Source: Candidatus Latescibacterota bacterium (lineage in GTDB: Bacteria; Latescibacterota; UBA2968; UBA8231). Taken from it: DNA of 64,000 nt. The stretch is from assembly GCA_965215195.1 (NCBI GenBank), contig CBDCDC010000002.1, positions 1,248,001 to 1,312,000 on the forward strand, given 5' to 3'. Numbering within the stretch: position 1 is the stretch's first letter; every line of letters begins with the position of its first letter. The notes under the pieces were generated by a model. It saw only the letters and a program-made list of their open reading frames with translations. It made no database searches and was not told where the DNA came from. The translations under genes were made by a program, and so were the position numbers. Shown here one piece after another: positions 5,568-27,722 of the stretch.

Positions 5568-5568
5568 A

Positions 5569-7487: not shown

Positions 7488-7628
7488 ATGACCGCTCTGC
7501 ACAAACCCGAACGCGCCACCTACGGCCAAGCCGTCGAGGCCCAAGCGGAATATCGCTTCACCATCTGCTCCAGCGATCCCAAGGCAGCTCTCTGCTGGGA
7601 TGATGGAGACCTCCTGTGCTGCCCGTAA
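7488..7628 (+). CDS. Cys-rich precursor peptide 1 (46 aa) MTALHKPERATYGQAVEAQ-AEYRFTICSSDPKAALCWDDGDLLCCP
   Basis: hand translation; AAGGA RBS; leader shared by four copies. Confidence 0.9.
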   Translation: MTALHKPERATYGQAVEAQAEYRFTICSSDPKAALCWDDGDLLCCP

Positions 7629-7708
7629 GAAGGCCTTGGCGTCCTCACTTGGTTCGATAGAACCTCTCACTTGGGAGGTAGCTGAAAAATCGACCAAGCT
7701 ATGGACGG

Positions 7709-7750
7709 GCGGAGTGGACCAGAGGTCCTATTGACCCCGGTCCACTCCGC
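7709..7750 (+). other. conserved intergenic RNA hairpin (copy 1)
   Basis: GCGGAGTGGACC...GGTCCACTCCGC 12-bp stem; homologs at 11121, 17026, 19041, 27810. Confidence 0.75.
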
Positions 7751-7855
7751 TTGGCTTCAGGCTCAATGATCGTGGGCCTGTAGTCTACTCCTGAGTGGGC
7801 GGCCGAGTCGGTCGCCTGCCCGCTAAATCCCAACCACATACCCAAGGAGGATGTT

Positions 7856-9030
7856 ATGAACAAGCTAAAGCATTTTATCGTGGTAGCCGGCCCTATGGTG
7901 CTGTTGGCTGGGTGCGGTGAGGACCAACTCGAAAACCGGGTGGAGATTACCCCCCGGCGGCTGACTTGGCATTCGACGAGGCAGTCATCAAGGACCGGGA
8001 CATCTACTTCCAAATGCCCGAAGACGTCGCTTTGGGGACGATCAGCTATACATTGGTAGATGCCAAGGGGGACCTCATCGTTGTGGACTCTGTTCAGTGG
8101 ACGATTTTCCAGATCAATGCGGAGGGCCAATACTTGCGGCAGATCGGCATGCGGGGAGGAGCCGAAGGCGAGTACTTTTATGTCCTCAAGATGCTACTGG
8201 CCCCCAATGACGATCTCTATATACACTGCATCGGAGAAAGCGCGAAGTATCTAGTCTTTGCCGGGGACTCATATAAGTTCAAGCGGGAGGTGCCCGACCC
8301 TAACTCCGCGCTCATTGATCATGTTGTGATTACCGAGGGAGGCAATATGTACGCCTCGCAAGTGGACGTCATTGATGGAGGCTCTGCCGGGGTGCAAGAG
8401 GATGGAGCACACGCTCTATTCCGCTTTGACGACCACTTCAATAAGGTCGCTAGCCTGTATCCGGTCGAAGACAAGCGAACAGGACGGACGTTGAACCGCT
8501 ACCACAACACAATTCTCACTCCTAGGACGGGGGGTGGCTTCTACTTCATGTATCCCACCGCCTACGATATCCATCAGTACAGCGAGCAGGGTGAGTTGGA
8601 ACAGACCCTATTTAGTACCTATTGGTCTAAGCACCGAAACGGGATCAATCCCTTGCCCGCCAGCTTGGATCCGCTCGCTTGGACTCCCAAGCACGCGGAG
8701 TGGCTTGCCGAGTACATCTTCCCTGTCCAACTTTTTGAATGTGATCCCGACTTGCTGGTACTCATGCAAGTAAGGAAGGAGGTCGACGGCGAAGTGAAAC
8801 GCTATATGAACCTCCTGTACAAGGACGGCCATTCGGTAGCCGACGGCATTAGAGTCCCCGCAAATCATAGGCTCCTGACGGTTGACGGCCGTGAGTTGTA
8901 TTTCGTGGTAGAGGGCGCGTTCGACGAGGAGACCGGCGAGGTGGGCGATCCGCATGTGGCCGTCTATCGGTTCAATGATCGCGCAGGGGCCGGCAAGTTA
9001 GCGTTCAGCCGCTCGCGGGGCGGCCAGTAG
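7856..9030 (+). pseudogene. beta-propeller (6-bladed/NHL-like) lipoprotein 1, one base short in C-run 7950-7955
   Basis: LAGC lipobox ORF 7856-8059 and body ORF 7966-9030 join if one C is added; GxRGGAEGEY motif shared with paralogs. Confidence 0.8.
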
Positions 9031-9046
9031 AGGAAGGGACATCACC

Positions 9047-9682
9047 ATGAATTCGCTAGCCAAAGCACTCCTGCTATTGTCCCTCGGACTCGGCTCGGTC
9101 GCCTTGGCTCTGCACCAAGACAACACCGACAGACGCGACGAGTTGGAGGCCCTTAATGAGCACCTAAAAGATTTAAAGACAGTCCAGTGGAAATACGAGG
9201 TCAACGCCGTCCTGAAGAGTAAACTACACCGCAAACTGATTGAATCGATGGAATTCGGCCGATTCACCAAATTCGACGAGTCGGCCGTTAGGGCCGACAA
9301 GCCGTTTGTCGTCGTCGTATCGACGAGCCGGACATGTGGAGCGTGCCTGTTTGCCCAACTCGACCAGTGGAAGGAGGCTATGACTCAAAGGAATGTCTCT
9401 TACGGCAAGTTGCTGCTGATCGTAGGCGACGCCAACGAGCGCATTAAGCAACAGATTGCCATAAAGCACAAGGTGGGCATCGTGCCCTTCGCCTTCACTT
9501 TCATGGCCGAGCGGGATCTTGAAGAGTTGATTTTCCAGTCGGACGACCGGTCAGCGGTGCCCGTCTCGTTTGTCGTGGACGAAGCCTTCCGTGTCCTCAA
9601 CTGGCACTATAGCGACAAAGGGGACGAAAAAGCTACGGCGCAGTGCATCCAAGACTGGCTGGACCGCTATTTCACCTCTTAA
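9047..9682 (+). CDS. membrane-anchored thioredoxin-fold protein 1 (CGAC)
   Basis: N-terminal hydrophobic helix, VVVVSTSRTCGAC, VPVSFVVD cis-Pro loop. Confidence 0.75.
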   Translation: MNSLAKALLLLSLGLGSVALALHQDNTDRRDELEALNEHLKDLKTVQWKYEVNAVLKSKLHRKLIESMEFGRFTKFDESAVRADKPFVVVVSTSRTCGACLFAQLDQWKEAMTQRNVSYGKLLLIVGDANERIKQQIAIKHKVGIVPFAFTFMAERDLEELIFQSDDRSAVPVSFVVDEAFRVLNWHYSDKGDEKATAQCIQDWLDRYFTS

Positions 9683-9840
9683 ACCGCGAAGGCGACCGGG
9701 CATCTCAGTGGTCTTTCAATTAAATTTTTTGATTTAATCGCCTCGTTGGTCGTAAGGTGAGATTATCTCAGTCCAGTTACCAGTGCTGGCCTTGTGCCCT
9801 TTATTTATCTCTCCCAACCACCAAGTAAGGAGGGATAAAG

Positions 9841-10400
9841 ATGAAAGAGCCAAGACCAGCGTTGGAGAATTTGTGTTGTCTCAATGCCCAATGCAAGGCT
9901 TACGGCCAACGCGGCCAAGCCAACCTGACGGTGCATAAGACCTATGGAGCCGACCGGATTCGTTATCTACGCTGTCAGCGCTGCGGGGATGAATTCAGCG
10001 AGCGAAAAGGCACGGCGTTGTTTAATTGCAAAATCCGGGAAGCGCAAGCCGTCTCGGTGATTGAGCGTCTAGATCGGGCCTGTGGCTTGAATGCCACGGC
10101 GGCCTTGGTCGGGGTATCCAAAGATGCGGTTCGCCACCTGCTTCGCGTGAGCGGACCGGTCAGCTGTCAACTGCATGACTGTCTGGTGCGTGCCTTGCAT
10201 CCGATGGCGCTCCAATTTGATGAGAAATGGGCCTATGTGGCGAAAAAACAACGACACTTGACCCCCATGGACGATCCGAGTGAACGGGGTGATTCTTAGG
10301 ATGCCAACAGTTTGGATCCGCAGAGCAAATTGCTGGTGTCGCTGGTGCCCGGTCGCCGTACGAGCACGACCCTTCATCAAGTGGTGGCGGATGCGGCGGA
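9841..10400 (+). mobile_element. IS1-family transposase pseudogene
   Basis: zinc-ribbon Cys pattern, FSERKGT, QFDEKWAYV; in-frame TAG at 10297-10299; truncated where cassette 2 homology starts (~10401). Confidence 0.75.
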
Positions 10401-10426
10401 ACTCCGATTTCTTGTAACTCTTTGTT

Positions 10427-10473
10427 TATCAGTAAGTTATGATTTTGTAGATCAGTTTGGCACGGAATGTGCT
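10427..10473 (+). promoter_or_regulatory. sigma-54 promoter 2 (IHF-like site kept, enhancer boxes missing)
   Basis: TATCAGTAAGTTA 10427-10439, TGGCACGGAATGTGCT 10458-10473. Confidence 0.8.
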
Positions 10474-10889
10474 ATTGCTATAGTGAGCACGAAAGTCAGC
10501 CGTTGTTGGCCCCACCCGCTACGGCGCAGAGGCCGACGGGCAGGCTTTCCATCCACCCAATAAGAGGAGGTGAAAATGAACCGCGTTATCAACATCCGCT
10601 CTCGCCTGCTTGGAGAACAGCTCGCTTTCGTGCCGCGCTGGTAGAGCCACCGTCCAGGTCGAGAAGACCTGTAGCCATGACCCTGCACTCACTCGTGTGC
10701 ATCAAGCCACGACCCGGCCCTCGAAGCCGCGCAGGCATTTGCCGCTGTCGGCTGCTGTTCCTTCTCGCGCCATGACACCGCCTTTACCGGCACCACTTAG
10801 GGCTATCCGTCAGGAGGCCCTGTCGCGACGCCTTTGGCGTCACCCTTTGGTTCGATTGAACCAGTCACTTACTACCAAGGAGCCTACGC

Positions 10890-11030
10890 ATGATCGCTCT
10901 GCACAAACCCGAACGCGCCACCTACGGCCAAGCCGTCGAGGCCCAGCACAACGAATACAACGTGGTCAGGTGCGACCATACGGGCGTCGTCTGCTTGGGG
11001 AACTCAGGCAGCTATCGCTGCTGCATTTAA
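10890..11030 (+). CDS. Cys-rich precursor peptide 2 (46 aa) MIALHKPERATYGQAVEAQ-HNEYNVVRCDHTGVVCLGNSGSYRCCI
   Basis: hand translation; AAGGAG RBS. Confidence 0.9.
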   Translation: MIALHKPERATYGQAVEAQHNEYNVVRCDHTGVVCLGNSGSYRCCI

Positions 11031-11276
11031 GGACGCCCTTCTGCGGCAGCCTCGGCTGACATCGGTTCGACAGCACCCTACTTGAGGGGTTACTGAAAAA
11101 TCAGTCAGCCATTGATCGGCGAGTGGACCATGGGTTCCATTGACCCCGGTCCACTCCGCCGGTCTTCGGGTGCTGAACGGTTGAAGATAGTTCCAGTAGC
11201 TACTCCTTGATGCACGGCCACATCCAGTCCGTGAATCTGCCAAGATGCAACCCCAACTCTCCACAAGGAGGATGTT

Positions 11277-12386
11277 ATGAAAAATTTGCTGCTGTTCATC
11301 GTGGTTTTCGGCCCTGTGGTGCTGTTGGCCGGGTGCGGCGATGATCCACCTAAACGCCGAGTGGAGATCACCCCTCCGGTGGCCGAACTCACGTTCGACG
11401 AGGCGTTAGTCAAGGATAGGGAAATCCACTTCCAAATGCCCGAGGGTATCGTTTTGGGCACGATCGGGGACCTCGTGGTCGATTCCAAGGGCAACCTCAT
11501 CATCTTAGATTTTGCCCAAGGGACGGTTTTCCTAGCCGATGCCGAAGGCAACTATCTGCGGCAGATCGGAGCGCGGGGAGGGGCTGAGGGCGAGTACCTT
11601 TCTATTATCGAGGTACTGCTAGCCCCAAATGACGATCTCTATACTTGGAGTATGGGAGAAGGCCTCAAGTACATGGTCTTTTCCGGCGGCTCTTATGAGT
11701 TTAAGAGAGAGGTTCCAGATCCTAATTCCCAGTACATCGATCATCTCGTGGTCTCCGCCGGCGGCCACATTTATGCCTCGCAAGTGGATTTGCGAATGGA
11801 CGGTATCCACGCCCTGTTCCGCTTTGACGACCACTTCAAGGTGATCGGCAACCTGTATCCGGTCGAAGACCAAAGGACCGCGACGGCCCTGCACCGCTTC
11901 CACAACACCATCCTCACCCCCAAGACCGGCGGTGGCTTCTACTTCATGTATCCGACCACCTACGAGATTCACCAGTACAGCGAGCAGGGCGAGTTGGAAC
12001 AGACCCTGTTTAGCACCTACCAGTCCAAGCACCGGGACGGCATCAAGCCCTTTCCCGCCGACTTAGACCCGTATGGTTGGAACCCCAAAATCGAGGCGTG
12101 GTTCGCGGAGCACATTGTCCGTCACCGACTTTTCGAATGCGGTTCCGACTTGCTGGTACTTGTGCAATACAGGCGGGAGGTTGGCAACAAGTACGAGTAC
12201 TATCTAAACTTCTTGTACAAGGACGGCCATTCGGTGGCCGATGGGATTCGTGTGCCCGCCAAGCACATACCGCTGACGGTCAACGGCTCTGAGTTGTACT
12301 TTGTGGTTGAGAGTGAGTTCAATGAAGCGACGGGCGAGGCGGACGATCCGCACATAGCCGTCTATCGGCTCAAGTCGGCTAGGTAG
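11277..12386 (+). CDS. beta-propeller lipoprotein 2
   Basis: AAGGAGG RBS, LAGC lipobox, paralog of 7856/17100/27934. Confidence 0.85.
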   Translation: MKNLLLFIVVFGPVVLLAGCGDDPPKRRVEITPPVAELTFDEALVKDREIHFQMPEGIVLGTIGDLVVDSKGNLIILDFAQGTVFLADAEGNYLRQIGARGGAEGEYLSIIEVLLAPNDDLYTWSMGEGLKYMVFSGGSYEFKREVPDPNSQYIDHLVVSAGGHIYASQVDLRMDGIHALFRFDDHFKVIGNLYPVEDQRTATALHRFHNTILTPKTGGGFYFMYPTTYEIHQYSEQGELEQTLFSTYQSKHRDGIKPFPADLDPYGWNPKIEAWFAEHIVRHRLFECGSDLLVLVQYRREVGNKYEYYLNFLYKDGHSVADGIRVPAKHIPLTVNGSELYFVVESEFNEATGEADDPHIAVYRLKSAR

Positions 12387-12511
12387 CGTTTAGCCGTTCA
12401 CAGAGCGGCTAGTAGAAAAAGTTCGTAGGACGAAGCCTTCCATTAGGTTGGGAGACGAAATCACATGCTATATCTCAAGCTGCCGAAAGGCAGTTCACTA
12501 AGGAGGATACG

Positions 12512-13498
12512 ATGAACAAACGGATGCTTTTTATCGCAATGGCTGGCATAGGGCTGCTTGGGGTTGACCCGGCCAACGCCGAGGCCGCAGCGGAACGAGG
12601 GGCCGACGAGCGCTTCACCGGCAAGGAGCAGGTCGTTGCGCTGCCGGGCGGTACCCAGATGACGTTTGTGTGGATTGAGCCGGGGACGTTTCAGATGGGA
12701 GCGCAGCTTCCAGAAGACGAGTCGCTGAAAGAGTTAGAAAGAACCGTGCGTTACGTTGGTTCCCTGCCGGTGCATGAGGTGGAGATTAGTGCGGGGTTCT
12801 GGTTGAGTAAGTATGTGGTTACGCAGGAGCAGTGGGAAGCAATAATGGGAACCACGCCTTGGCGCGACGAAGACAACATCGACCGAGAGTTGGTGCAGTC
12901 GAATCCGGCGCATCCGGCCGTGTATATTTCTTGGCACGACGCCCAAGCGTTGATACACCAGCTCAATAGCGCCGCCGGGGAGGACGTGTATCGGTTGCCG
13001 ACCGAGGCCGAGTGGGAGTATGCCTGCCGGGCAGGCACTTCGACCCTGTGGTCGTTTGGCAACGAAGAGGGCGCGTTCTCTACCTTGTGGACGTATCACG
13101 CGGATAAGGGTTCGCTCGCCCACTATGCGTGGTATCGGAACAATACGTTGGGTAGGAATGAGGAGTATGCTCATGCGGTGGGACAGCATCGTCCGAATGC
13201 GTGGGGCTTACATGATATGCACGGCAATGTGTGGGAGTGGGTACAGGACTGGTATGACATCGACTATTACAAGCATTCGCCGCGGGTGGATCCTTTAGGC
13301 CCTCCATCCGGCTCTTTAGGCTCTGGTCCTAACTCTTTACGCTCTAAGATGAGGGACGACGCTACCGACTCTTTACGCGTCATGCGGGGGGGGGACTTTA
13401 TCACCCCTGTCATATACACACAATCGGCGTACCGCATATTCAAAGAGCCTTACGAAGGTTACGCTACTATTAGTGTACGCCTTTTGAAGATGCGTTGA
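12512..13498 (+). CDS. FGE-sulfatase (SUMF1) domain protein, secreted
   Basis: signal peptide, RLPTEAEWEYACRAG, PNAWGLHDMHGNVWEW, RVMRGG. Confidence 0.9.
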   Translation: MNKRMLFIAMAGIGLLGVDPANAEAAAERGADERFTGKEQVVALPGGTQMTFVWIEPGTFQMGAQLPEDESLKELERTVRYVGSLPVHEVEISAGFWLSKYVVTQEQWEAIMGTTPWRDEDNIDRELVQSNPAHPAVYISWHDAQALIHQLNSAAGEDVYRLPTEAEWEYACRAGTSTLWSFGNEEGAFSTLWTYHADKGSLAHYAWYRNNTLGRNEEYAHAVGQHRPNAWGLHDMHGNVWEWVQDWYDIDYYKHSPRVDPLGPPSGSLGSGPNSLRSKMRDDATDSLRVMRGGDFITPVIYTQSAYRIFKEPYEGYATISVRLLKMR

Positions 13499-13517
13499 CC
13501 TTTGTGCTTGTTACAAA

Positions 13518-13645
13518 TTTCATCTCGGTCGTCGGCACTATGCGACCGAATCCACGTGCGACGAGGCGTTCGTTGAGGATTGGGACATCCACTTTCAAAT
13601 GCCCAAAGACGTCGGTCGGCAAGAGAGCGTTTAGCCGATTGTAGG
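13518..13645 (+). pseudogene. internally deleted beta-propeller gene remnant
   Basis: DEAFVEDWDIHFQMPKDV (paralog N-terminus) joined directly to the GKRAFSR-type 3' end. Confidence 0.6.
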
Positions 13646-13670
13646 GCTCGCAGAGAAGGAGATCATTGCC

Positions 13671-14306
13671 ATGAATTCGCTAGCAAAAGCGCTTCTGGTG
13701 CTGTCTTTCGGCCTCGGCTCGGTCGCCTTAGCCCTGCACCAAGACAACGTCGACAGACGCGACGAGTTGGAGACCCTCAACGAGCGGCTGGAACACTTGG
13801 AGACCGTCCAATGGAACTACGAGGTCAATGCCGCCCTCAAGGAGAAGCTACACCGCAAGCTGATCGAATCGGTGGACTTGGGCCGATTCGCCAAGTTCGA
13901 CGAGTCAGCCGCCGGGGATGGCCAGCCGTTTGTCGTCGTCGTATCGACGAGCCGGACATGTGGAGCATGCCTGTTTACCCAACTCGCTCAGTGGAGGCAG
14001 GCGATGGCGCACAGGGGCATCTCCCACGGCAAGCTACTGCTGGTCGTAGGCGACGCCAACGAGCACATCAAGCACCAAATCGCCATAAAGAGCAAAGTGG
14101 ACATCGTGCCGTTTGCCTTCACCTTCGTGGCCGAGCGAGAGCTCCAAGCACTGCTGTTTCAGTCCGAGGCCCGGTCGTCGGTGCCGGTCTCGTTTGTCGT
14201 GGACGACGCCTTTCATGTCCTCAACTGGCACTATAGCGACAAAGGAGACGAAGAAGCGACAGAGCAATGTATCCAAGATTGGCTGGAACAGTACTTCACT
14301 TCGTAA
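13671..14306 (+). CDS. thioredoxin-fold protein 2 (CGAC)
   Basis: close paralog of 9047 and 18317. Confidence 0.8.
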   Translation: MNSLAKALLVLSFGLGSVALALHQDNVDRRDELETLNERLEHLETVQWNYEVNAALKEKLHRKLIESVDLGRFAKFDESAAGDGQPFVVVVSTSRTCGACLFTQLAQWRQAMAHRGISHGKLLLVVGDANEHIKHQIAIKSKVDIVPFAFTFVAERELQALLFQSEARSSVPVSFVVDDAFHVLNWHYSDKGDEEATEQCIQDWLEQYFTS

Positions 14307-14326
14307 ACGGCGATTCCGCGACGCCA

Positions 14327-18958: not shown

Positions 18959-19271
18959 ACGGCGATTCCGCGACGCCATTAGTGTCAACCCTTAGTTCGA
19001 TAGAACCCCTCACTATCAATTGACCTAGCCATTGACCGGCGAGTGGACCGTGGATTTCGTTGAACACGGTCCGCTTTGCTAGTCATCAATTCCTTCCTCC
19101 CATCATCACCCGCCCCACTCAACATGACAGGGGCAGGTGCGTTCCTTCCTTGTCATGCTGAGCGAAGTACTATGCGTACCGTCAGTTGTGAATGACGTAG
19201 GATCGCAATAGCTGCTATGTCGATGCCTCGGCGATGAAATCGCAGTCGGCCAGCGGTCTGTAGCGGCGATC

Positions 19272-19498
19272 CCCTTTTAACGCACTACGTCCCTTTTGAC
19301 GCACTACGTCCCTTTTGACGCACTTTCTCTAACCTGTTGTAAATAAAGCCAGATAGAAGCAATATAGAACATTAGGTGCGTCGAAAGGGTGCAGTTGAAG
19401 CGCGATTCGGCGTTTGGTTTGCGATGCCCCAATTTTTTGTAACTCTCTGTATAACAATTAGTTATGGTCTTGTAGATCAGCTTGGCACGGAATCTGCT
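19272..19498 (+). promoter_or_regulatory. sigma-54 promoter of the maturation/export operon, with tandemly expanded enhancer box
   Basis: 19-bp unit CCCTTTT(G/A)ACGCACTACGT repeated nearly three times at 19272-19324; box 19377-19393; TGGCACGGAATCTGCT 19483-19498. Confidence 0.85.
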
Positions 19499-19576
19499 AA
19501 GTGTAAAAGTAGGCCCTAGCCGCTAAGGAGCGGAATTGACGGGCAGATTTTCCACACTCATAAGAGGAGGTCAACC

Positions 19577-19672
19577 ATGACCCTGCACCCCTTAGTCCAG
19601 ATCAGGTATATCTTCGGCCGGAGGAATGGCTCCTACAGGCGTAGCCTCTCTCAACGCCGAGAAGAGACGTAG
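19577..19672 (+). CDS. putative 31-aa leader uORF MTLHPLVQIRYIFGRRNGSYRRSLSQRREET
   Basis: AAGAGGAGG RBS; homologous to 100-165 but shifted frame after IRY. Confidence 0.3.
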   Translation: MTLHPLVQIRYIFGRRNGSYRRSLSQRREET

Positions 19673-19707
19673 CCGTACCCCTGCACAAAACCAAAGAGAG
19701 GTGAACG

Positions 19708-20424
19708 ATGAAAAACATGGCGCGGAACATCTCCCTGCTCGTCAATGCGTTCCTCCTGCTACTCATTGCCACTGGCACCCTGTGGGCACTGAAAGAGCTG
19801 CACCGGCAAGACCCGACCGAGGCCGAGCGGCTGGTGAAGGAGAAGACCTACTTCAAGGACTACCTCAACAGCAGCGTCCAAGCTTCGACCAAGCTGGGCC
19901 TGAAATTCCCCGTCATTGAGATGACAGATATCAAAGGCCGGCCTTTGAGCACGGATTTCTCCAAGACCCAAAAGGGAGGAATCGTCGTCGTGCTCAGCCA
20001 ACTGGCGTGCCAGCCCTGCCTCAAGCCGCAGATGCAGATCCTGCAGCACATCTACGAGCGTCTCGCCGATCCGGAGGCGATGCCCATTTACTGCATCGCC
20101 AGAATGAGCGAGCGGAAGTTTTCGGACTATGTGCGGACGTTCCAGATCACTTTTCCGGTTGCGTCGGACACGACCGGGTACTTCAACGAGACGCCTTTTG
20201 GCGAACCGACCCCGGCCGTATTTGTAATTGACGAGAACAACACGGTCGTCAACGTCCATATCCCCGTGCAGGAGAAGCCGCACCTTTCGGTCATTTTCTA
20301 CAACGAGTTGAAGCCTTGGTTCGACTTGGCCAAGCCGCTCGCTTTCAAGTTCAAAGGCGTGAAGTACTACGACGTCATCACCAACAAGGCCGATTTGAGC
20401 TCGGTCAAGCACTTGCTCTACTGA
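19708..20424 (+). CDS. membrane-anchored redoxin/AhpC-TSA-like protein (CQPC)
   Basis: N-terminal TM, LACQPC, TPAVFVID. Confidence 0.8.
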   Translation: MKNMARNISLLVNAFLLLLIATGTLWALKELHRQDPTEAERLVKEKTYFKDYLNSSVQASTKLGLKFPVIEMTDIKGRPLSTDFSKTQKGGIVVVLSQLACQPCLKPQMQILQHIYERLADPEAMPIYCIARMSERKFSDYVRTFQITFPVASDTTGYFNETPFGEPTPAVFVIDENNTVVNVHIPVQEKPHLSVIFYNELKPWFDLAKPLAFKFKGVKYYDVITNKADLSSVKHLLY

Positions 20425-20455
20425 CCGGCCACCTATCGCAAGGGAGGACAACGAG

Positions 20456-22186
20456 ATGATAGTCAAGGAATTTGCCATGCGCTTCGCCCGGTACATCAAA
20501 CCGTACTGGTGGCAAAGTTCAATCGTATTCGCCTTCATGGTCTTGGCAACGGCCAGTTCGCTCGCCTTCCCCTATATCCTGATGGTCCTCATCGACGAGG
20601 CCCTGCCCGACGAGGACTACTATTTATTGGGCATCCTGCTGGCCACGCTATTCGGTATCATCGTCTTGAACATAATCAGCGTTTTTATTGCCGAGTATCT
20701 GTATCGCTGGGTCGGCAACCTCGTCGTGTTTGAGATGCGGAGCGAGTTGTTCAGCCACCTGCTGCGCCTGCCGCTAAGTTTCTTCAAACGCAACAAGACC
20801 GGGGATATCGCTCACCGGCTCAACAACGATGTGCAGATCGTCCAGAAAACGCTCACTTCCGGCGTACTGAAGCTCATCAACAGCGTGCTGACTTTGGTCA
20901 GTTTGGGGGCGGTGCTGATATGGCTAGACGCTCCCCTTTTCTTTGGCCTGAGCCTGCTCGTGCCCTGCTTCATCGTGAACCTCAAGTACTTCCAGCCCAA
21001 AGTAGGCAAGGTGGCCGAGGCAACCCAACACAAGACTTCGGATATACTGGGGTTTTTTATCGAGCGTTTCGACAACATCAAACTCGTCCAGTCGTACAAC
21101 ACATACCGACACGAGAGCGACAAGTTGGGCCGACGACAGAGTGAGTTGTTCGATCTGGAAATGCGTAGCACTGCGTTGAATCTTTCCGCTGGTTCCATCG
21201 CGTCCTTTATCATGTCCTTGGCTCCTGTTGTCATCCTCGGTTGGGGAGGGCATCAAGTCATGCAGGGCGCACTCGGCTTGGGGGCGCTAATCGCCTTTTT
21301 CCAATACTTCATGCGCATTTTCGGACCCTTGGAGAGCCTGAATCAACTGTACATAGATTGCGTCCGGGCGTCGGTTTCTCTGCGGCGAATTGTGGAATTC
21401 ATGGACGTACCGGCGGAGGTTGACGCAGAGCCGGAGCGGGCCAAACCCTTCTCGTTCAAGAATAAGATAGTGTTCAAAGGCGTGGATTTTGCCTACAACG
21501 GGCACCCTGTACTCAGCCGTTTTGATTTGGAGATTGAAAAGGGCAAGACCTACGCGCTCGTCGGGGCGAGCGGTTGCGGCAAAAGCACGGTTGTCGATCT
21601 GTTGTGCCGTTTTTACCAGCCGCAAAAAGGCGAGATCGCCATAGACGACGCGCCTTGCCGGGCCTTTGGTCTGGGCAAGTACCGGGACCGCATCGGCTTG
21701 GTGTCGCAAGAAGCGCAACTCTTCCGCGATTCGGTGCTCGAAAACATACGCTATGGCCGGTTGGAAAGTTCCAAAGAAGAGATCGAACGCGCGGCCGAGG
21801 AACTCGATATCAACGGTGCAGCCATCCACGCGTCCGAGGACTCCTTGGCGACGGTATGCGACTCCAAAGCCAACCTGTCGGGTGGACAGAAACAGCGGAT
21901 AGCCCTAGCGAGGGCCGTGCTGAAAAACCCCGAGATCATCGTACTGGACGAGGCGACTTCAGCTCTCGACTCGGAGAGCGAGGAGAAGCTGTTGCGCCGG
22001 CTCAAGGGCCAAGCCGACGACAAGACGGTCATCATCGTCAGCCACCGGCTCAGTGCCGTTAGGGAGGTCGATGAGATCGTCTGCATGGACGAGGGGAAAA
22101 TTGTCGAGAAAGGCACTCATGCCGAATTGATGGAGAAAAAAGGCCACTATTGGGAACTGTTCAAAACCCAGATTGCGAACAATTAA
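20456..22186 (+). CDS. ABC exporter, fused permease/ATP-binding (no C39 domain)
   Basis: TM domain, GASGCGKS, LSGGQKQR, LDEATSALD. Confidence 0.95.
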   Translation: MIVKEFAMRFARYIKPYWWQSSIVFAFMVLATASSLAFPYILMVLIDEALPDEDYYLLGILLATLFGIIVLNIISVFIAEYLYRWVGNLVVFEMRSELFSHLLRLPLSFFKRNKTGDIAHRLNNDVQIVQKTLTSGVLKLINSVLTLVSLGAVLIWLDAPLFFGLSLLVPCFIVNLKYFQPKVGKVAEATQHKTSDILGFFIERFDNIKLVQSYNTYRHESDKLGRRQSELFDLEMRSTALNLSAGSIASFIMSLAPVVILGWGGHQVMQGALGLGALIAFFQYFMRIFGPLESLNQLYIDCVRASVSLRRIVEFMDVPAEVDAEPERAKPFSFKNKIVFKGVDFAYNGHPVLSRFDLEIEKGKTYALVGASGCGKSTVVDLLCRFYQPQKGEIAIDDAPCRAFGLGKYRDRIGLVSQEAQLFRDSVLENIRYGRLESSKEEIERAAEELDINGAAIHASEDSLATVCDSKANLSGGQKQRIALARAVLKNPEIIVLDEATSALDSESEEKLLRRLKGQADDKTVIIVSHRLSAVREVDEIVCMDEGKIVEKGTHAELMEKKGHYWELFKTQIANN

Positions 22187-22202
22187 AAAAAGGGAGACCA
22201 GG

Positions 22203-24140
22203 ATGAATACCAATGAGAAGTTGCAGACGCTCGACTTTACCCGTTTGACCGGACGCGGGGTCAAGGTCGCGGTAGTTGACAGCGGTATTGAACCCAATCA
22301 TCCCAAGATCGGCCCTATTGCCGGCGGAGTTGGTTTATATGCGCTTGCCGAGGGCGGTATCCAACGCGAGGACGATTTCTCTGACCGGGCCGGTCACGGT
22401 ACGGCCTGCGCGGGCATTATCCGCAAACTGGCCCCGGAAGCCGAACTCTACGGGGTACGCGTTTTTGACGAGTCTCTGACCACGGATGGGCAGTCGCTGG
22501 TCGCAGCCGTTGCTTGGGCCATAGAAGAGGGCATGGACGTAGTCAATCTCAGTTTAGGGACGATTGACCCCGCGTACAAGAGGCCCTTGGCGGAGATATG
22601 CCGCAAGGCCGTGGAAGCCAATCTGATTCTGGTGGGTTCCCAGCACAACGAGGGCATGGAAAGCTATCCAGCGGAATTAGCCGACGTAATCGGCGTCACT
22701 TGGGGAAAAATCTACGACCGCTACGGGTACTACTACCGGCGCGGGCAGGCCATTGAGTGCGTGGCGCGGGGCGATCAGCAGCGTCTGTGCTGGCTGGACG
22801 GAGGAGAGACGATCACCGGCGGAACCAGTTTTGCCGCGCCCCACATAGCGGGGATTGTCGCCTTAATCCGCCAACGCTTTCCCGGAGCGGGGTTGACCCA
22901 AGTACGGGAGATTTTGGCGGCAAATGCCTTAGAGTCGGAGGGGCCTGTCGCGTCGGATATCGCTGTCGAACGGCCGGGTTTTCCCAGCTACGAGTGGATC
23001 GACCGGGCGGCCCTGTATCCGTACAACAAGGAAATGCACGCGCTGGTGCGCCACGCGAAGCATTTGCATTTCACCATCGCTGGCATCGCCGATCCGGTCG
23101 GCAAAGGTCTGGTCGGCAAGGACGCCGGCGAGGCTATTGGCGTTGAGCCGTTAGGTGTGCGCATTGTCCCCAAACTCGAGGACGCGCTACGGGGAGCCGA
23201 TACCCTCGTGTTGGGGTACGTCGATCAGCTATCTCAGTTGAGCAAAAAGGACTTGCTGCGCGAGGCCATACAGACGGCGTTGGAGCGGGGGCTCAATGTG
23301 TTCAGCTTCCTAGCGGTTGATCCAGAGACCTACGCCGACTTGTACGATTTGGCGCAGAGCAAGGGGTTGCGTTTGGAGTTCCCGGATTTCGATTTCGCCG
23401 ATGTCCAAAGGTGCCTTGCAGCCCAAGGCTCCGAGCGCACCGTGGATGTGCCGGTGGTCGGGGTTTTCGGCACGAGCTCCCAACAGGGCAAGTTCACCTT
23501 GCAACTCGCATTGCGGCAAAAGCTGATTGAGCAAGGATACACAGTTGGTCAACTGGGCACCGAGCACCATTCGGCCCTGTTCGGGATGGATTTTTCCTTC
23601 CCCATGGGCTACGCCGCGCCCAGAGACCTGCCGTTGCAATACTACGGTCCGTACTTAGACCACAAGATGCGCGAGATTAACGCGGCGAAAAAACCGGATA
23701 TCATCTTAGTCGGCTGTCAGTCGGGCACCATACCCTATGATGTCGCCAACCACAACTCCCATACCGAGCCGTCGATCCACTTCCTGTTGGGGACCAAACC
23801 AGACGCCTGCATTTTAGTGGTCAACAGCACGGATTCGGATGCGTATATCCAAGACACCATGGATGGCATACGCATATTGGGCAAAGCCCCGGTCGTATTG
23901 CTGGCGATGAGCGACAAGGAGAAACACGCCCGGTCGGTCTATGGCAAAACTTGGGTTTCCTCTCGTCAGATGAGCGAGGGTGAGATAAAGGGCCACTTGG
24001 AGCGCTTAGAGGCTTCGTTTGGCTTGCCAGTGGTGGCGATTGTTGCCGAGGAGGGGCAGCAGCGAATGGTCGATATTGTCGTCAACCATTTTGCCGCAGA
24101 GAGTCGGCCAGCGTCCGAAGAGATTAAAAAGGCCGGGTAG
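22203..24140 (+). CDS. S8 (subtilisin) peptidase fused to DUF1611/TIGR04066-like domain
   Basis: VAVVDSG / GHGTACAG / GTSFAAP triad; C-terminal YPYNKE, GKDAG, GTSSQQGKFTLQLALR...GYTVGQLG; no signal peptide. Confidence 0.85.
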   Translation: MNTNEKLQTLDFTRLTGRGVKVAVVDSGIEPNHPKIGPIAGGVGLYALAEGGIQREDDFSDRAGHGTACAGIIRKLAPEAELYGVRVFDESLTTDGQSLVAAVAWAIEEGMDVVNLSLGTIDPAYKRPLAEICRKAVEANLILVGSQHNEGMESYPAELADVIGVTWGKIYDRYGYYYRRGQAIECVARGDQQRLCWLDGGETITGGTSFAAPHIAGIVALIRQRFPGAGLTQVREILAANALESEGPVASDIAVERPGFPSYEWIDRAALYPYNKEMHALVRHAKHLHFTIAGIADPVGKGLVGKDAGEAIGVEPLGVRIVPKLEDALRGADTLVLGYVDQLSQLSKKDLLREAIQTALERGLNVFSFLAVDPETYADLYDLAQSKGLRLEFPDFDFADVQRCLAAQGSERTVDVPVVGVFGTSSQQGKFTLQLALRQKLIEQGYTVGQLGTEHHSALFGMDFSFPMGYAAPRDLPLQYYGPYLDHKMREINAAKKPDIILVGCQSGTIPYDVANHNSHTEPSIHFLLGTKPDACILVVNSTDSDAYIQDTMDGIRILGKAPVVLLAMSDKEKHARSVYGKTWVSSRQMSEGEIKGHLERLEASFGLPVVAIVAEEGQQRMVDIVVNHFAAESRPASEEIKKAG

Positions 24141-24169: not shown

Positions 24170-24420
24170 TGTCGACTGGATTGAACTGATCGCTGGCGGT
24201 CTTCTGCTGTTAGACATTTGGCCGCGCAGCAATGCGTTGGTCGTGTTCGGGCTATTGGTGGTTTTCAGCACGGCACTGGGCATCAATATGTACCGCGGCA
24301 ACGATGTGACGTGCGGTTGTTTTGGGGGCGACGGAGGAGCTTCGCTGACTTGGACTTTGTTGCGCGACCTACTTTTGGCGGGGGAGCTATGGTGCTGCTG
24401 GTGCGGAAGGAGCAGAAAAA
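24170..24420 (+). pseudogene. MauE/DoxX 3' remnant
   Basis: closely matches ~5319-5565 (CGCFG) with frameshift. Confidence 0.8.
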
Positions 24421-24482
24421 TACTACACGACGGAGCCACCATTCAAGATGGAATCCAACGGATGTGCCGGAGGTTATAGACC

Positions 24483-24777: not shown

Positions 24778-24903
24778 GGCCGCGTCATACGGGGCGGCGA
24801 CTTTATGGCTCCTGTCATATACCTGCGGTCAGCGAGCCGCAGGGCTAGTGAACCCGACGAACGTGATTATAGCACTGGTGTGCGCCTTTTGAAGATGCGT
24901 TGA
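24778..24903 (+). pseudogene. FGE-sulfatase gene 3' remnant
   Basis: RVIRGGDFMAPVIY...VRLLKMR* homologous to the end of 12512-13498. Confidence 0.75.
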
Positions 24904-24969
24904 GCTTTGTGCTCGTTACAAGGATGAGGAGGAGGCATTCGGCCGCTAGTAGGGAAGGAGATCATTGCC

Positions 24970-25098
24970 ATGAATGCCGCTAAGGTGCCCGTTTCGTTTG
25001 TCGTGGACGACGCCTACTGGCACTATAGCGACAAAGGAGACGAAGAGGCGACGGAGCAGTGTATCCAAGACTGGCTGAACCGGTACTTCACTTCGTAA
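24970..25098 (+). pseudogene. thioredoxin-fold gene with large in-frame deletions (42 aa)
   Basis: MNAAK joined to VPVSFVVDDAYWHYSDKGDEEATEQCIQDWLNRYFTS. Confidence 0.8.
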
Positions 25099-25121
25099 AC
25101 GGCGATTCCGCAACCCGCAGA

Positions 25122-26882
25122 TTAGTGTCCCGCCGCATCGTCCACCGCTTGATACGCAACCATCTCCCAGCCGTGAAACACCACCGCCAAGCCAATATGC
25201 CGCACCGACGGGTGGCGGCGGCGCAGGGACGGGTCTGCCAAATAGCCGCGCACCTGAAGCACGGCCTCCTGCACCTTGTCCGCCACAACGGATTCGTCGA
25301 GCGACTCGCTTCGTTTCACATACTTCAGTTCCAACACATAGCCGAAACCCACGTCAGGGTATTGGGCGAGGAACGGCTCCAAATACAAATCCGCGTACCC
25401 CTTGTTCAGTTCGTACTCCGAGTGCAGTAGAAACTGATCCACCAGGCTCAAGTGGGCGGCGACAAAACCGTGAATCACCTTCTCGCCATCCATGTAGTCG
25501 CGGATGCCGGTTTGCTCGGCGAGGGCATCGCGCAAAAAATCCAAGGCCGGCCGCCAAGCGCCGTCGTAGGCCATCTGGCGCATCAGACGGGAGAAGGTGT
25601 ACCCATCGACGGAGAACACGTCCACATCGTCGTAGGCATCGCGCAGGTAGCCGTACATTAGCCGCTTGACCGTTTGATTGGGAATGCCCAGCCGGGGCAC
25701 TCCGTGCGCCACGGCGCGAATGCTGAGCAGGCCGAAGTAATACAGCAGGGACAGGAAGTTTTCGCGTTGGTCTAACTGTTCTAGCGGAAAACTGATTTGA
25801 ATGTCACTCTCGGCGGTCTGCTCGCCGATGATGTGGCGCAGCAGGTCGAAGTTGCCGTTGAGTTGGCGGTTGACCGTCAGCAGGTGGCGCAACTTGCCGT
25901 AGTCGATGCGCACGTTGGTGTCGAGCAATTCCCGCGGTCCCCGTTTGTTCGGCATGGATTTGTGTAAAAAGTAGAGGACCATGTCGGTGTTGTAGAGGTC
26001 GCCCTCGGCCTCATCGGCGAAGCGATAGCCGTTGTACCACTCGCGCATCACCGCCAGCACGGCTTCGACATCCTGATTGAACACGCCGCAGTCGCGGTAT
26101 AGCTCCAGCACCTCCCGCACCTCGGCCTCGGTGAAGCCGAGCATGTTGTTGAACTCTGGTTCCAAGCTGATGTTGCTGCCGATATTGAAGCCGCTGGTGA
26201 CGTCGTCCATGGTAATCGGCGACACGCCGGTGATGAACAACCGCTCCAAGCCGCCGCTTCGCCCGGCTCCGGCCTTCAGCACGGCAAAAAAATTGCGATA
26301 GAAACCACCACCGTGGGTGAAGGACTGGTAGGCTTCGGCCCCGCGATGCGCCAGCACGGTGTTGGCAAAATTGTCGTACTCGTCGATGAGCACATACAGC
26401 GGAATGCCATGGTCACCCGCGTACAGAAACAGCGCGGCGAGCTTGGCGTCAATGGAGGGCGGCGAGAGAATGCGTTGTCTCGCCTCTTGGGGAAACAGAT
26501 CTCGATTGCGCCTGAGTGCGTGGTCGAGTTCCAAGTGACAGTACATCTCAAAGCGTTCCCGCAGGGTTTCTAAGGTGTCATCGAACGCCGAAAAGTCAAA
26601 GCGCAGGACGACGTAGCGATGGCGGTTTTCCGTCGGCTGCCGCCCCAAATACGTGCCGCCGAAGATAGCCTCAAATTCATCGGCGCGGGTGCGGTCGTAG
26701 TAGTTTTCCAGCAGGGACACCCAGCAGGACTTGCCAAAGCGACGCGGACGAATCAGAAAGACGTAGCGTTCCTCTTCTAAGGCGTGGACAAAGCGGGTCT
26801 TATCGACGTAGAGGCGGTTTTCCAAGCGGATGGCGCGGAAATCAGCCCAACCGTAGGGAATGCGCGGGTAGGATGCGGCCAT
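25122..26882 (-). CDS. AAA-ATPase-like + PD-(D/E)XK nuclease domain protein (paralog)
   Basis: same motifs as 14327-16093. Confidence 0.9.
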   Translation of the reverse strand: MAASYPRIPYGWADFRAIRLENRLYVDKTRFVHALEEERYVFLIRPRRFGKSCWVSLLENYYDRTRADEFEAIFGGTYLGRQPTENRHRYVVLRFDFSAFDDTLETLRERFEMYCHLELDHALRRNRDLFPQEARQRILSPPSIDAKLAALFLYAGDHGIPLYVLIDEYDNFANTVLAHRGAEAYQSFTHGGGFYRNFFAVLKAGAGRSGGLERLFITGVSPITMDDVTSGFNIGSNISLEPEFNNMLGFTEAEVREVLELYRDCGVFNQDVEAVLAVMREWYNGYRFADEAEGDLYNTDMVLYFLHKSMPNKRGPRELLDTNVRIDYGKLRHLLTVNRQLNGNFDLLRHIIGEQTAESDIQISFPLEQLDQRENFLSLLYYFGLLSIRAVAHGVPRLGIPNQTVKRLMYGYLRDAYDDVDVFSVDGYTFSRLMRQMAYDGAWRPALDFLRDALAEQTGIRDYMDGEKVIHGFVAAHLSLVDQFLLHSEYELNKGYADLYLEPFLAQYPDVGFGYVLELKYVKRSESLDESVVADKVQEAVLQVRGYLADPSLRRRHPSVRHIGLAVVFHGWEMVAYQAVDDAAGH

Positions 26883-26984
26883 GGCGGCTCCTCAAACGAG
26901 GGGATGGTCCTGAGCGTAACGATTGAGCGCAACCAGCGCAACGTGTGCATGGCTGCCGCAGCGGCGAGCGCACTTTTAACGCAC

Positions 26985-27177
26985 TACGTCCCTTTTGACG
27001 CACTTGATCTAACCTATTGTAAAGACGTGAGATAGGCGCAAAGTGGAGCATTAGGTGCGTCGAAAGGGTGCAATCACAGCGCGATTCATCATCTTGTATG
27101 AAATACTCCGATTTCTTGTAACTATTTGTCTATCAGTCAGTTATGTCTTTTTAAGTCGGTTTGGCACGGAATGTGCT
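26985..27177 (+). promoter_or_regulatory. sigma-54 promoter 4 with enhancer boxes
   Basis: boxes 26985-27002 and 27056-27072; TATCAGTCAGTTA 27131-27143; TGGCACGGAATGTGCT 27162-27177. Confidence 0.85.
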
Positions 27178-27590
27178 TATATAGTAGGTGAGCACGAAAG
27201 TAAGCCGTTGTTGGTCTCAGACGCTACGGCGCAGAGACCGACGGGCAGGCTTTCCATCCACCCCATAAGAGGAGGGAACAATGAACCGCTTTTATCAACA
27301 TCCGCTCTCGCCTGCTTGGACAACGGCTCGCTCTCGTGCTGCGCTGGTAGAGCCATCGTCAAAGTCGAGAAGGTATGTAGCCATGAGCCTGCACAAGTCC
27401 GTGATCTACGGCCCGGCCATGCGAAGCCGCGCAGGCATTTGCCGCTGTCGGCTGCTGTTCCTTCTCGCGCCATGACAACGCCTTTACCGGCATCACTTAG
27501 GGCTACCCATCAGGAGGCCCTGTCGCGACGCCCTTGGCGTCACCACTTGGTTCGATAGAACCACCTACTTATTACTCAAGGAGCATAGCT

Positions 27591-27722
27591 ATGATCGCTC
27601 TGCACAAGCCCGAACGCGCCACCTACGGCCAAGCCGTCGAGGCCCAGTATGAATACCAGAACATGGTATGCGACGCATATGATGCTAGGTGCTGGGATCC
27701 GGGGCACAGAAGGTGCTGCTAG
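27591..27722 (+). CDS. Cys-rich precursor peptide 4 (43 aa) MIALHKPERATYGQAVEAQ-YEYQNMVCDAYDARCWDPGHRRCC
   Basis: AAGGAG RBS; C-terminal part of track ORF 27534-27722. Confidence 0.9.
   Translation: MIALHKPERATYGQAVEAQYEYQNMVCDAYDARCWDPGHRRCC

Follow-up and report, generated by a model that had tools for sequence, protein, structure and literature searches.

What is encoded by four small genes that agree almost base for base over 19 codons and then part company? The question is posed by a 64,000-nucleotide (nt) stretch of a Candidatus Latescibacterota genome (assembly GCA_965215195.1, contig CBDCDC010000002.1, positions 1,248,001 to 1,312,000 of the forward strand), referred to here as the window. 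It contains an island of related genes in which four short open reading frames (ORFs) join a nearly invariant leader to hypervariable cores bearing cysteines. We find that these ORFs are real, conserved, precursor-like genes. We favour the view, to which we assign a probability of about 60%, that they are precursors of lineage-restricted, leader-guided, exported and disulfide-folded mini-peptides of the bacteriocin or signal type. The system varies a known kind, that of leader-guided secreted peptides, and combines its parts in a new way. No such combination was found in the literature searched, and the supplementary cluster tables of PMC9426513, which lay outside the search, might list such loci. 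The portion of PMC9426513 consulted reports a high biosynthetic potential of Latescibacterota and holds no description of the island's system.

Four ORFs with one leader and different cores

A six-frame search of the window returned exactly four ORFs with the leader, all on the plus strand. Their positions and sequences agree with those given in an earlier, sequence-only reading of this DNA:

7488-7628, plus strand: precursor 1, 46 amino acids (aa), a 19-aa leader and a 27-aa core with 4 Cys
10890-11030, plus strand: precursor 2, 46 aa, 4 Cys
16798-16938, plus strand: precursor 3, 46 aa, a single Cys and then a terminal CCC
27591-27722, plus strand: precursor 4, 43 aa, 4 Cys, with CC at the end

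Each precursor gene belongs to a cassette with its own upstream block and its own downstream gene for a propeller lipoprotein. BLASTN with the first cassette found only these four copies in the whole 6.13-Mb genome (two contigs, 60% G+C), and a protein search agrees. The leader, which ends in A-V-E-A-Q and has no double glycine (GG), is 0.93-0.98 identical at the DNA level among the four copies, and identity collapses from codon 20 on, as the sequence-only reading had described, to ∼41%. We profiled identity along an alignment of 12 cassette copies in 30-column windows, for the four window copies and for all 12. Values are 0.96 and 0.90, respectively, at nt 2-31 and 0.87 and 0.84 at nt 32-58, and they fall to 0.45 and 0.49 at nt 58-85 and to 0.36 and 0.43 at nt 86-115. 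With 60-column windows, the leader scores 0.92 versus 0.41 for the core. A 2686-nt homology block (14180-16854 versus 24984-27647, 86.7% identity) stops at the last base of codon 19 in copies 3 and 4. Cysteine spacing is also as first described, with C-x6-8-C-x7-8-CC in copies 1, 2 and 4, and one Cys, seven residues and CCC in copy 3.

Some of these cores recur outside the window. A core identical to that of precursor 1 is present at locus L016, and cores of the same type as precursor 3 are present at L013 and L026. Contigs of three sequencing runs that may be the source samples (X1, X2 and X4) match positions 7514-8904 without a difference. Precursor 3 has a second allele in contigs of three runs, differing at 21-22 positions over 421-432 nt (window positions 16809-17229); 18 of the differences are listed at 16839-16918, from the last leader codons into the core. 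The window's own allele is present in a fourth run.

Distribution, cysteine scaffold and selection

How widespread are such precursors? Ten relatives that share the leader but have other cores came from a word-based protein search. Across the phylum, matches were obtained in 9 of 168 genomes and retained in eight. The ninth (G050, E = 0.004) was rejected as a chance match, since it lies inside a 152-aa open frame and has neither the leader start nor the CC end. All eight precursor-bearing genomes belong to the window's genus, where they make up 8 of 31 genomes, G000 included. A scan of 185,579 species genomes confirmed six loci among 65 pattern-matching stretches, all in metagenome-assembled genomes of Latescibacterota, and a metagenome scan confirmed one of 144. 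When a profile of 21 precursors was searched against 1.84 billion representative proteins, 11 matched at E ≤ 0.001, all of them from the same tight family. Results of the phylum, species-genome, metagenome and protein searches indicate a family that is real, rare and lineage-restricted, found in one Latescibacterota genus only.

Among 23 distinct precursors counted by script, 19 have four core Cys, three have six, and one (P0011) has a single Cys and a frameshift-like tail. The profile search added five intact members (four with four Cys, one with six) and three that are broken or truncated; Cys counts of these eight additions were read by eye rather than by script. In total, 27 members are intact, 23 of them with four Cys and four with six. 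The even count that the sequence-only reading had noted in four cores thus extends to 27 of 27 intact members, and random Cys counts were not seen in this homolog set. C36 and C44 are present in all 21 rows of the alignment, and E21, G40 and C45 in at least 90% of them. The core scaffold reads E-[YF], 3-5 residues, C, 6-8 residues, C, 3-4 residues, G, 3-4 residues, CC and 0-1 further residue. Three members depart from it at the end: P0161 has five residues after CC, P0164 has two extra Cys, and P0008 ends C-T-C. Trp is not conserved in the cores.

In the leader, silent changes (pS) far exceed replacement changes (pN). Over 14 sequences (91 pairs, pooled), pS is 0.318 and pN is 0.066, a ratio of 0.21, which argues that the leader is held by selection at the protein level and not only by homogenisation of the DNA. 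A diversity-generating retroelement was considered for the cores and rejected: the island has no reverse transcriptase, and differences among the cores affect every base type as well as their length. The sequence-only reading had also likened the end of the leader to the NVEALA motif. Model searches do not support this likeness: PF14055 is not among the matches of six precursors at E ≤ 10, and its best match in the genome, at 13.8 bits versus a cut-off of 27, lies elsewhere.

Promoter and 5′ RNA of the cassettes

The sequence conserved among cassettes starts ∼620 nt upstream of the ATG rather than at the ATG, and is 81-91% identical among the four copies and 70-85% identical between genomes.

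6869-7487, plus strand: cassette 1 upstream block, with activator sites, a sigma-54 promoter (7059-7074) and a ∼410-nt 5′ leader RNA
10401-10889, plus strand: cassette 2 upstream block, with a sigma-54 promoter (10457-10472) and 5′ leader RNA
16181-16797, plus strand: cassette 3 upstream block, with a sigma-54 promoter (16372-16387) and 5′ leader RNA
26971-27590, plus strand: cassette 4 upstream block, with a sigma-54 promoter (27161-27176) and 5′ leader RNA
7708-7752, 11117-11161, 17022-17064 and 27806-27850, plus strand: conserved RNA hairpin in the gap between precursor and propeller genes (RNAalifold)

The first 200 nt of the block form a module with a perfect −24/−12 element of the sigma-54 type and paired GACGCAC and GTGCGTC sites. 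This module aligns in 12 copies from six sources, and it also precedes the Redoxin operon of the window and, in the window or in sister genomes, the RND and rhodanese operons. Matches to the sigma-54 pattern number six in the window (at 3, 7059, 10457, 16372, 19482 and 27161) versus 0.35 expected, and none of 100 shuffles reaches six. The genome has rpoN (426 bits, above cut-off). Judged by its sequence features, namely the −24 GG/−12 GC promoters, activator sites, an NtrC-type regulator gene and rpoN, the island is a predicted sigma-54 regulon. Predicted sigma-70 promoters and intrinsic terminators at 6800-11400 were at or below chance.

A 5′ leader RNA of ∼400 nt lies between promoter and precursor. 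The Shine-Dalgarno sequence of the precursor (AAGGA) and its ATG are invariant in 12 copies. The hairpin downstream of the precursor, ∼80-100 nt past the stop codon, has 13-16 base pairs; RNAalifold on 11 copies gave 16 pairs, nine of them with compensatory changes. An Rfam scan of positions 1-32000 at E ≤ 1 returned one sub-threshold small RNA match (22 versus 44 bits) and none for the conserved 5′ RNA.

Three further elements were seen in this region. A small upstream ORF (7165-7250, with its start at 7179; 10566-10644; 16480-16560; 27269-27350) begins with AGGAGG-N5-ATG, which is invariant in 12 of 12 copies. In the commonest frame its stop is always TAG or TAA. Four copies are frameshifted by a one-base difference in length past codon 3, and the ORF may encode a regulatory leader peptide. 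A decayed precursor-like ORF lies ∼200 nt upstream of each precursor (7281-7400, 10681-10800, 16590-16700, 27390-27500). It shows a similar leader pattern and a GCC/GCF stretch, its ATG is invariant (12 copies, seven genomes), and its frame is broken at a different site in each copy. It may be what is left of a second precursor in tandem, or it may function as an RNA or an upstream ORF. Finally, the hairpin motif GGTTC-RATA-GAACC occurs ∼20 nt upstream of each precursor's ribosome-binding site and again just past the stop codon (in cassette 1, at 7440-7460 and 7650-7665).

These features bear on the plainest alternative, that the ORFs are non-functional by-products whose leader is conserved only because it sits inside a recombining repeat. 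Its advocates could point to the conserved block that begins 620 nt upstream and holds a frameshifted, decayed precursor-like ORF kept at the DNA level, and to a homology block that ends exactly at codon 19. However, leader changes between genomes are mostly silent and seldom alter the protein; 27 of 31 cores are open, of similar length, and retain the conserved Cys, Gly and E-[YF]; and the ribosome-binding site and ATG of the precursor are invariant. These data make the by-product explanation very improbable.

Flanking pump and regulators

The island lies between RND genes and the genes for a binding protein and a kinase in six of six 20-kb loci and also at L029, with content that varies.

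377-1876 and 1877-3535, plus strand: split AcrB-like RND genes (ACR_tran matches), with a sigma-54 type promoter at 3-18
29228-30817, plus strand: family-5 solute-binding protein of the peptide/nickel type, likely part of the regulator set
30821-32935, plus strand: dCache-HAMP-PAS histidine kinase, likely part of the regulator set
32763-34322, plus strand: NtrC-type sigma-54 activator response regulator, likely part of the regulator set

The RND gene is split in relatives as well (499 + 552 aa in the window), and the conservation of the split argues that it is not an error. The binding protein, kinase and regulator genes adjoin the island and are syntenic in L017, L018, L021 and L029.

This arrangement raises the possibility of a sigma-54 autoinduction loop with pherotypes, in which the peptides serve as strain-type pheromones and either the neighbouring binding protein and kinase or the propellers act as sensors. 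In the agr and com pherotype systems, a conserved leader goes with a variable mature peptide, and the precursors described here follow the same pattern. Moreover, the binding protein, dCache kinase and NtrC-type regulator stand beside the island in every locus that reaches that side, and one promoter and activator module is common to all island operons. On the other hand, the binding protein and kinase are 76-92% identical between genomes, like their housekeeping neighbours, whereas the peptides are wholly different. Given this, the two proteins cannot be type-specific receptors. Four different peptides per genome would also be unusual for a pheromone, and we consider a signalling role of this kind unlikely.

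Thiol-redox proteins and the chemistry of the cysteines

If the cores are modified or folded, which proteins could act on their cysteines? The neighbourhood of the cassettes is rich in extracytoplasmic thiol-redox proteins, namely the CxxC protein, Redoxin, MauE and rhodanese.

4666-5142, plus strand: rhodanese (Pfam Rhodanese, 1.2e-15)
5097-5567, plus strand: MauE/DoxX membrane protein (Pfam MauE, 3e-29)
5569-6624, plus strand: BtrH-like protein, 351 aa (from its nearest ESM Atlas clusters)
9047-9682, plus strand: cassette 1 CxxC protein, 211 aa, thioredoxin-like, with an N-terminal membrane anchor
12512-13498, plus strand: secreted FGE-sulfatase-domain protein (Pfam, 9.9e-43) with a signal peptide, present in cassette 2 only of the four
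13671-14306, plus strand: cassette 2 CxxC protein, 211 aa
18317-18958, plus strand: cassette 3 CxxC protein, 213 aa
19708-20424, plus strand: Redoxin with an N-terminal membrane anchor, in the shared operon

Three of the four cassettes have a CxxC gene. Among 24 sequences of the encoded protein, C100 is invariant and C97 is present in at least 90%. The protein aligns with the island Redoxin by BLASTP (E = 2e-5), CxxC on CxxC, and hhalign gives 70% probability over 29 columns in the cis-Pro region. Its AlphaFold2 model has the right order of elements for a thioredoxin fold, at low confidence (pLDDT 48). Searches of Pfam and NCBIfam gave no match at threshold for it, and the best match among solved structures has an E value of 0.78. 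For the BtrH-like protein, Pfam itself gives no match, and the nearest ESM Atlas clusters carry BtrH_N, Peptidase_C39_2 and DUF4872 (score 0.98). The rhodanese, MauE and BtrH-like genes are syntenic in L016, L018 and L019, and the FGE-like gene recurs beside the same propeller type in L017, L020, L021 and L029.

Among scanned island ORFs of at least 140 aa, we found no radical SAM or lanthionine enzyme, and no acyl carrier gene was seen among those scanned. CcpM is absent from the genome as searched, the best match scoring 91 bits versus a cut-off of 500 and lying ∼820 kb from the island. Because the radical SAM step is missing, a thiol-redox set is present and the Cys count is strictly even, two (or three) disulfides are the most likely Cys chemistry, as far as sequence can indicate.

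Other chemistries can be envisaged, including metal binding, or persulfide formation, formylglycine formation or acylation by the rhodanese, the FGE-like or the BtrH-like protein. A terminal CC is a common feature of metal-binding sequences, and both a rhodanese and an FGE-sulfatase-domain protein are encoded in the island. The BtrH-like protein, together with an acyl carrier encoded beside the same protease fusion at sister paralogous loci (described below), hints at acyl transfer. Yet an even number of Cys, including the compensating change in type 3, is predicted by pairing and is not needed for metal; the FGE-like gene accompanies some cassettes only; and the scanned island ORFs lack an acyl carrier gene. 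Taken together, the evidence makes chemistry other than disulfides improbable, about as much so as pheromone signalling.

Protease fusion and exporter

Besides the cassettes, the island contains one shared operon with candidates for leader removal and export.

19482-24140, plus strand: shared operon with a sigma-54 promoter at 19482-19497; Redoxin, ABC exporter and protease fusion
20456-22186, plus strand: ABC exporter, 576 aa, ABC_membrane and ABC_tran domains only
22173-24140, plus strand: fusion of an S8 subtilase and a DUF1611/TIGR04066-like domain, 655 aa, predicted to be cytoplasmic

The N-terminal half of the fusion is a subtilase that has an intact D-H-S triad and lacks a signal peptide. 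Among curated families it matches QhpE best, at a score under the cut-off (NF049966; E = 1.3e-41, model positions 1-212 of 219). Residues 278-641, assigned to DUF1611 by Pfam, match TIGR04066, likewise under the cut-off (E = 4.4e-38, positions 2-360 of 361). This is the sole match to TIGR04066 in the genome, and there was none in 14 control genomes. Compared with solved structures, the protease recovers generic subtilisins only. The exporter has no C39 peptidase domain in the domain scan.

Both matches have precedents among peptide maturation systems. According to the parts of PMC7876137 consulted, QhpE cuts the 28-residue leader of QhpC, after which the ABC pump QhpF exports the product. In the SacP23 cluster of Paenibacillus polymyxa, which belongs to the CLI_3235 family, a Cys-rich core carries a 19-aa leader and is accompanied by TIGR04066, a subtilase and an ABC transporter, as far as the consulted part of PMC10731318 describes it. 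The sequence-only reading had compared the leader with those of CLI_3235. The TIGR04066-like domain on the island protease bears this link out indirectly, while the precursors themselves match no NCBIfam model at E ≤ 1 and hence give no match to TIGR04065.

The parallel with Qhp suggests another possibility, in which a periplasmic propeller protein takes up the peptide as a small, cross-linked subunit, like QhpC or the light chain of methylamine dehydrogenase. That light chain is rich in disulfides, and the mau genes include MauE and MauD; the island has MauE and a MauD-like CxxC protein. The propellers of quinohemoprotein and methylamine dehydrogenases have seven blades, compared with six of the NHL type here. 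A catalytic subunit would be expected to be conserved, and in the cores only the Cys, one Gly and E-[YF] are kept, Trp not. General scans of the island also found no QhpD-type radical SAM, heme subunit or QhpG-like gene. The list of parts does run parallel, with a leader-bearing Cys peptide, a QhpE-like protease, an ABC exporter and a propeller partner (PMC7876137, in the portion consulted). On balance, a subunit role seems distinctly improbable, more so than either pheromone signalling or another cysteine chemistry.

Propeller lipoproteins and their types

The second gene of each cassette encodes a propeller of the DUF5128 family.

7858-9030, plus strand: propeller 1, DUF5128, frame broken
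11277-12386, plus strand: propeller 2, six-bladed DUF5128 propeller (Pfam, 2.1e-7) with an L-A-G-C lipobox
17100-18281, plus strand: propeller 3, lipoprotein start at 17100
27934-29049, plus strand: propeller 4, lipoprotein start at 27934, with no CxxC gene downstream

All four score above the Pfam cut-off for DUF5128 (25.7-35.6 versus 22.9 bits), and the lipobox is near-invariant in 43 propellers. In propeller 1, a run of C near 7950 is 1 nt shorter than in the ortholog at L016, which places the lipoprotein signal out of frame; the frameshifted sequence is also found in the X1, X2 and X4 contigs. The AlphaFold2 model of propeller 2 (pLDDT 84.7) has its best match in the PDB in 4RAA (E = 7e-13, TM-score 0.65-0.68, 12% identity) and otherwise matches generic NHL domains. 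Virginiamycin B lyase is among the fold matches, with E ∼1e-8. A prediction of the complex between mature propeller 2 (residues 26-369) and precursor 2 gave a score of 0.02 and a mark of 0.32, and weighs neither way. The literature search found no paper on DUF5128 or on NVEALA.

Comparison of loci shows that island content ranges from one to four precursors and from one to at least seven propellers. In L020, one precursor heads a tandem array (10098-20136) in which propeller genes number at least five, and an FGE-sulfatase-domain gene comes after each of four of these. In L021, the CxxC and protease genes are remnants only. No precursor accompanies five of the seven propellers in L020, two of the three in L021, or either of the two in L029. 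Across the genus, this type of propeller is present in 9 of 31 genomes, including all eight with precursors, and the protease fusion in 20 of 31, often at several other loci. These different distributions argue that peptide and propeller form a tight pair and that protease and pump belong to a more widespread module.

Propeller clades are shared between genomes, with 74-94% identity within clades and 60-70% between them, and their distribution broadly matches that of core types. For the 5′ RNA, likeness goes with the genome: the four window copies are 0.85-0.91 alike. Two cassettes of L020 have similar 5′ RNAs (0.91) and dissimilar cores (0.36) and propellers (0.64). Cassette 1 and its counterpart at L016 have identical cores, propellers 0.90 alike and 5′ RNAs 0.87 alike. 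The 5′ RNA following the genome while propeller clades cross genomes suggests within-genome homogenisation of promoter, RNA and leader, combined with old, exchangeable types of core plus propeller.

A paralogous system is arranged around the fusion gene at L027, L028 and L030-L032. It includes a very divergent DUF5128 propeller (28-36% identity), Redoxin, ABC and rhodanese, and further an acyl carrier protein, a 241-aa protein, a BtrH_N/DUF4872 protein and an MFP-RND pump. The PP-binding carrier gene lies downstream of the fusion on the same strand at these five loci, and is adjacent to it in L033. The carrier protein matches general acyl carrier protein models, and TIGR04069 is not listed among its matches. 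Within the genus, maturation systems of this sort make up a larger class that has not been described, and the window island is one of its branches. In L028, where the paralogous system spans 2368-16418 on the minus strand, a 68-aa ORF with four Cys and a good ribosome-binding site (14791-14997, minus strand) may be a precursor of that system. It was the one candidate when small Cys-rich ORFs were crudely searched for around the paralogous protease loci, L030-L032 giving none.

Repeats and gene remnants

The island also contains a multi-copy repeat and gene debris.

14327-16171, with a second copy at 25122-26882, minus strand: gene with AAA-ATPase_like and PDDEXK_9 domains, a multi-copy repeat; fragments at 4000-4395

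Contig depth at this gene is ∼10 times that of its neighbours, and the gene is duplicated along with the cassette upstream block. Such co-duplication with the promoter block suggests that these repeats may drive rearrangements of the island. Three pieces of debris are signs of repeated insertion and decay: a fragment of an IS1-like transposase downstream of cassette 1 (NF033558, 4.6e-8; 9841-10299), and fragments of a MauE-like and an FGE-like gene downstream of the protease gene (24176-24421; 24781-24921).

A proposed pathway and the evidence against it

Under the favoured reading, the regulator would switch on all sigma-54 promoters together, and the hairpin behind each precursor would raise precursor RNA relative to the downstream genes. 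The subtilase would remove the 18-19-residue leader in the cytoplasm, by analogy with QhpE and QhpC, and the ABC pump would export the core. The CxxC protein, Redoxin, rhodanese and MauE would oxidise it, forming two disulfides, or three in the six-Cys types. The propeller lipoprotein would then handle its own peptide type, be it as immunity protein, receptor or finishing enzyme. Recombination and selection would keep promoter, 5′ RNA and leader alike within a genome.

Several observations weigh against this reading. The protease matches are below their cut-offs, at 142 versus 165 bits for QhpE and 131 versus 200 bits for TIGR04066. One genome, G133, has two intact precursors and eight propellers and no S8-DUF1611 gene at E ≤ 1e-20, and another, G130, has only a protease paralog of 30% identity, so protease and pump are not always linked to the peptides. 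L020 has no CxxC gene within the 20 kb read. Variability of the propeller is spread over strands and both loop faces (0.95 bits for strands, 0.87 for D-to-A loops, 0.99 for B-to-C, 0.81 for A-to-B and 0.75 for C-to-D), with no hypervariable binding face visible; loops at residues 98-108 and 225-229 are strongly conserved. Broken or truncated forms make up 4 of 31 members, and this, together with the frameshift in propeller 1, indicates that part of the system is decaying. For the cores, pN/pS is 0.48-1.37 in the nine pairs that can be aligned without gaps at ≥40% identity. The contrast between leader and core for which the sequence-only reading had proposed a comparison is therefore present (0.21 versus 0.48-1.37). 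Core selection is relaxed or mixed, and positive selection is not demonstrated, the sites being few. Finally, similarity of cores correlates only weakly with that of propellers (Spearman coefficient 0.39, reached by 18 of 2000 permutations), and the correlation between 5′ RNA and propeller is about as strong (0.33, reached by 46 of 2000). Since the two links are similar and adjacent genes share history anyway, we do not claim co-evolution.

What, then, might the propeller do? One possibility is that the peptides are antagonistic bacteriocins and the propeller is a cognate immunity protein that binds or inactivates the peptide at the membrane, with spare propellers as orphan immunity. The order precursor, propeller, CxxC, ABC mirrors that of the pediocin operon, as far as the sources consulted describe it, and this resemblance puts the propeller in the place of the immunity gene. 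Propellers without precursors in L020, L021 and L029, types that are old and common to several species, and an RND pump in the same regulon all fit this picture, as does the presence of virginiamycin B lyase, a propeller that inactivates a peptide antibiotic, among the fold matches. Set against these are the lack of a concentrated variable face on the propeller, the weak correlation with core type, and the frameshift in propeller 1 while precursor 1 is intact. In addition, the conserved loops at 98-108 and 225-229 would equally fit an enzyme or a common binding site. We view immunity as a possibility, albeit a doubtful one.

A more far-reaching reading, which we put forward only tentatively, is that core and propeller are cognate pairs of a polymorphic recognition system. 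Disulfide-knotted peptides would act on neighbours, as toxin or kin signal, and type-matched propellers would neutralise or read them; spare propeller and FGE-like genes would be orphan specificities, and the QhpE/TIGR04066 fusion protease would define a wider, undescribed class of peptide maturation systems, each genome having several paralogous loci. If propellers are indeed type-matched partners, the locus would be a compact model of peptide-partner diversification.

Peptides that pair a guiding leader with a variable core are among the main sources of new natural products, and the present family comes from Latescibacterota, a phylum without cultured producers. The system bridges two subjects usually treated apart, maturation of the QhpC subunit and the CLI_3235 peptides of Firmicutes, and disulfides appear to take the place of the radical SAM step in it. 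Being short, the cores can be synthesised, which makes their disulfide framework and activity directly testable, and the fixed leader offers a simple probe for further members.

Comparison with known systems

Invariant leaders that precede variable cores on a fixed Cys framework, with several paralogs per genome, are known from prochlorosins, cyanobactins and cone-snail toxins. The island differs from these in having no lanthionine, heterocycle or macrocyclase enzymes, and in that each core type travels with its own propeller gene. The conotoxin comparison drawn in the sequence-only reading remains an analogy.

Latescibacterota and Bacteroidota both belong to the FCB group. The DUF5128 propellers of Bacteroidota (4RAA, BF0058) resemble those of the island in the Pfam match and as the best fold match, but identity of an island propeller to 4RAA is merely 12%. 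In Bacteroides, DUF5128 genes may lie beside those for NVEALA peptides.

Pediocin-like (class IIa) operons, in the sources consulted, share with the island a four-Cys peptide, a CxxC accessory protein (PedC in pediocin), an ABC exporter and the gene order. They use a double-glycine leader and a C39 peptidase on the ABC protein, whereas the island has no GG, no C39 domain and a separate subtilase. The island precursors show no sequence relation to class IIa peptides, and the second gene encodes a 370-aa propeller lipoprotein instead of a small immunity protein.

With QhpC maturation, as covered by the consulted parts of PMC7876137, the island has in common a small, leader-bearing, non-Sec Cys peptide, a QhpE-like cytoplasmic subtilase, an ABC exporter and a periplasmic propeller partner (QhpB in that system). 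The island subtilase scores under the QhpE cut-off. General scans of the island, in which the QhpD model itself was not searched, revealed no QhpD-type radical SAM, QhpG or heme subunit. The Qhp gamma subunit has a conserved Trp (CTQ) and thioethers from Cys to Asp/Glu made by QhpD, whereas the island cores are hypervariable and have no conserved Trp. The island propeller differs too, being a six-bladed NHL/DUF5128 lipoprotein.

The CLI_3235/CcpM system (TIGR04065, TIGR04066, TIGR04068, TIGR04069) is likewise built, going by the consulted part of PMC10731318, on a Cys-rich core behind a 19-aa leader, with a subtilisin-like protease, an ABC transporter and a TIGR04066 protein; the island's counterpart of the last scores under the TIGR04066 cut-off. 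Scans found no CcpM radical SAM maturase in the island or the genome, no acyl-carrier-related gene was seen among the island ORFs, and the four precursors have no TIGR04065 match in NCBIfam at E ≤ 1. In the island the TIGR04066-like domain is fused to the protease, and propeller lipoproteins, CxxC proteins, rhodanese, MauE and sigma-54 control are added, all in a diderm phylum.

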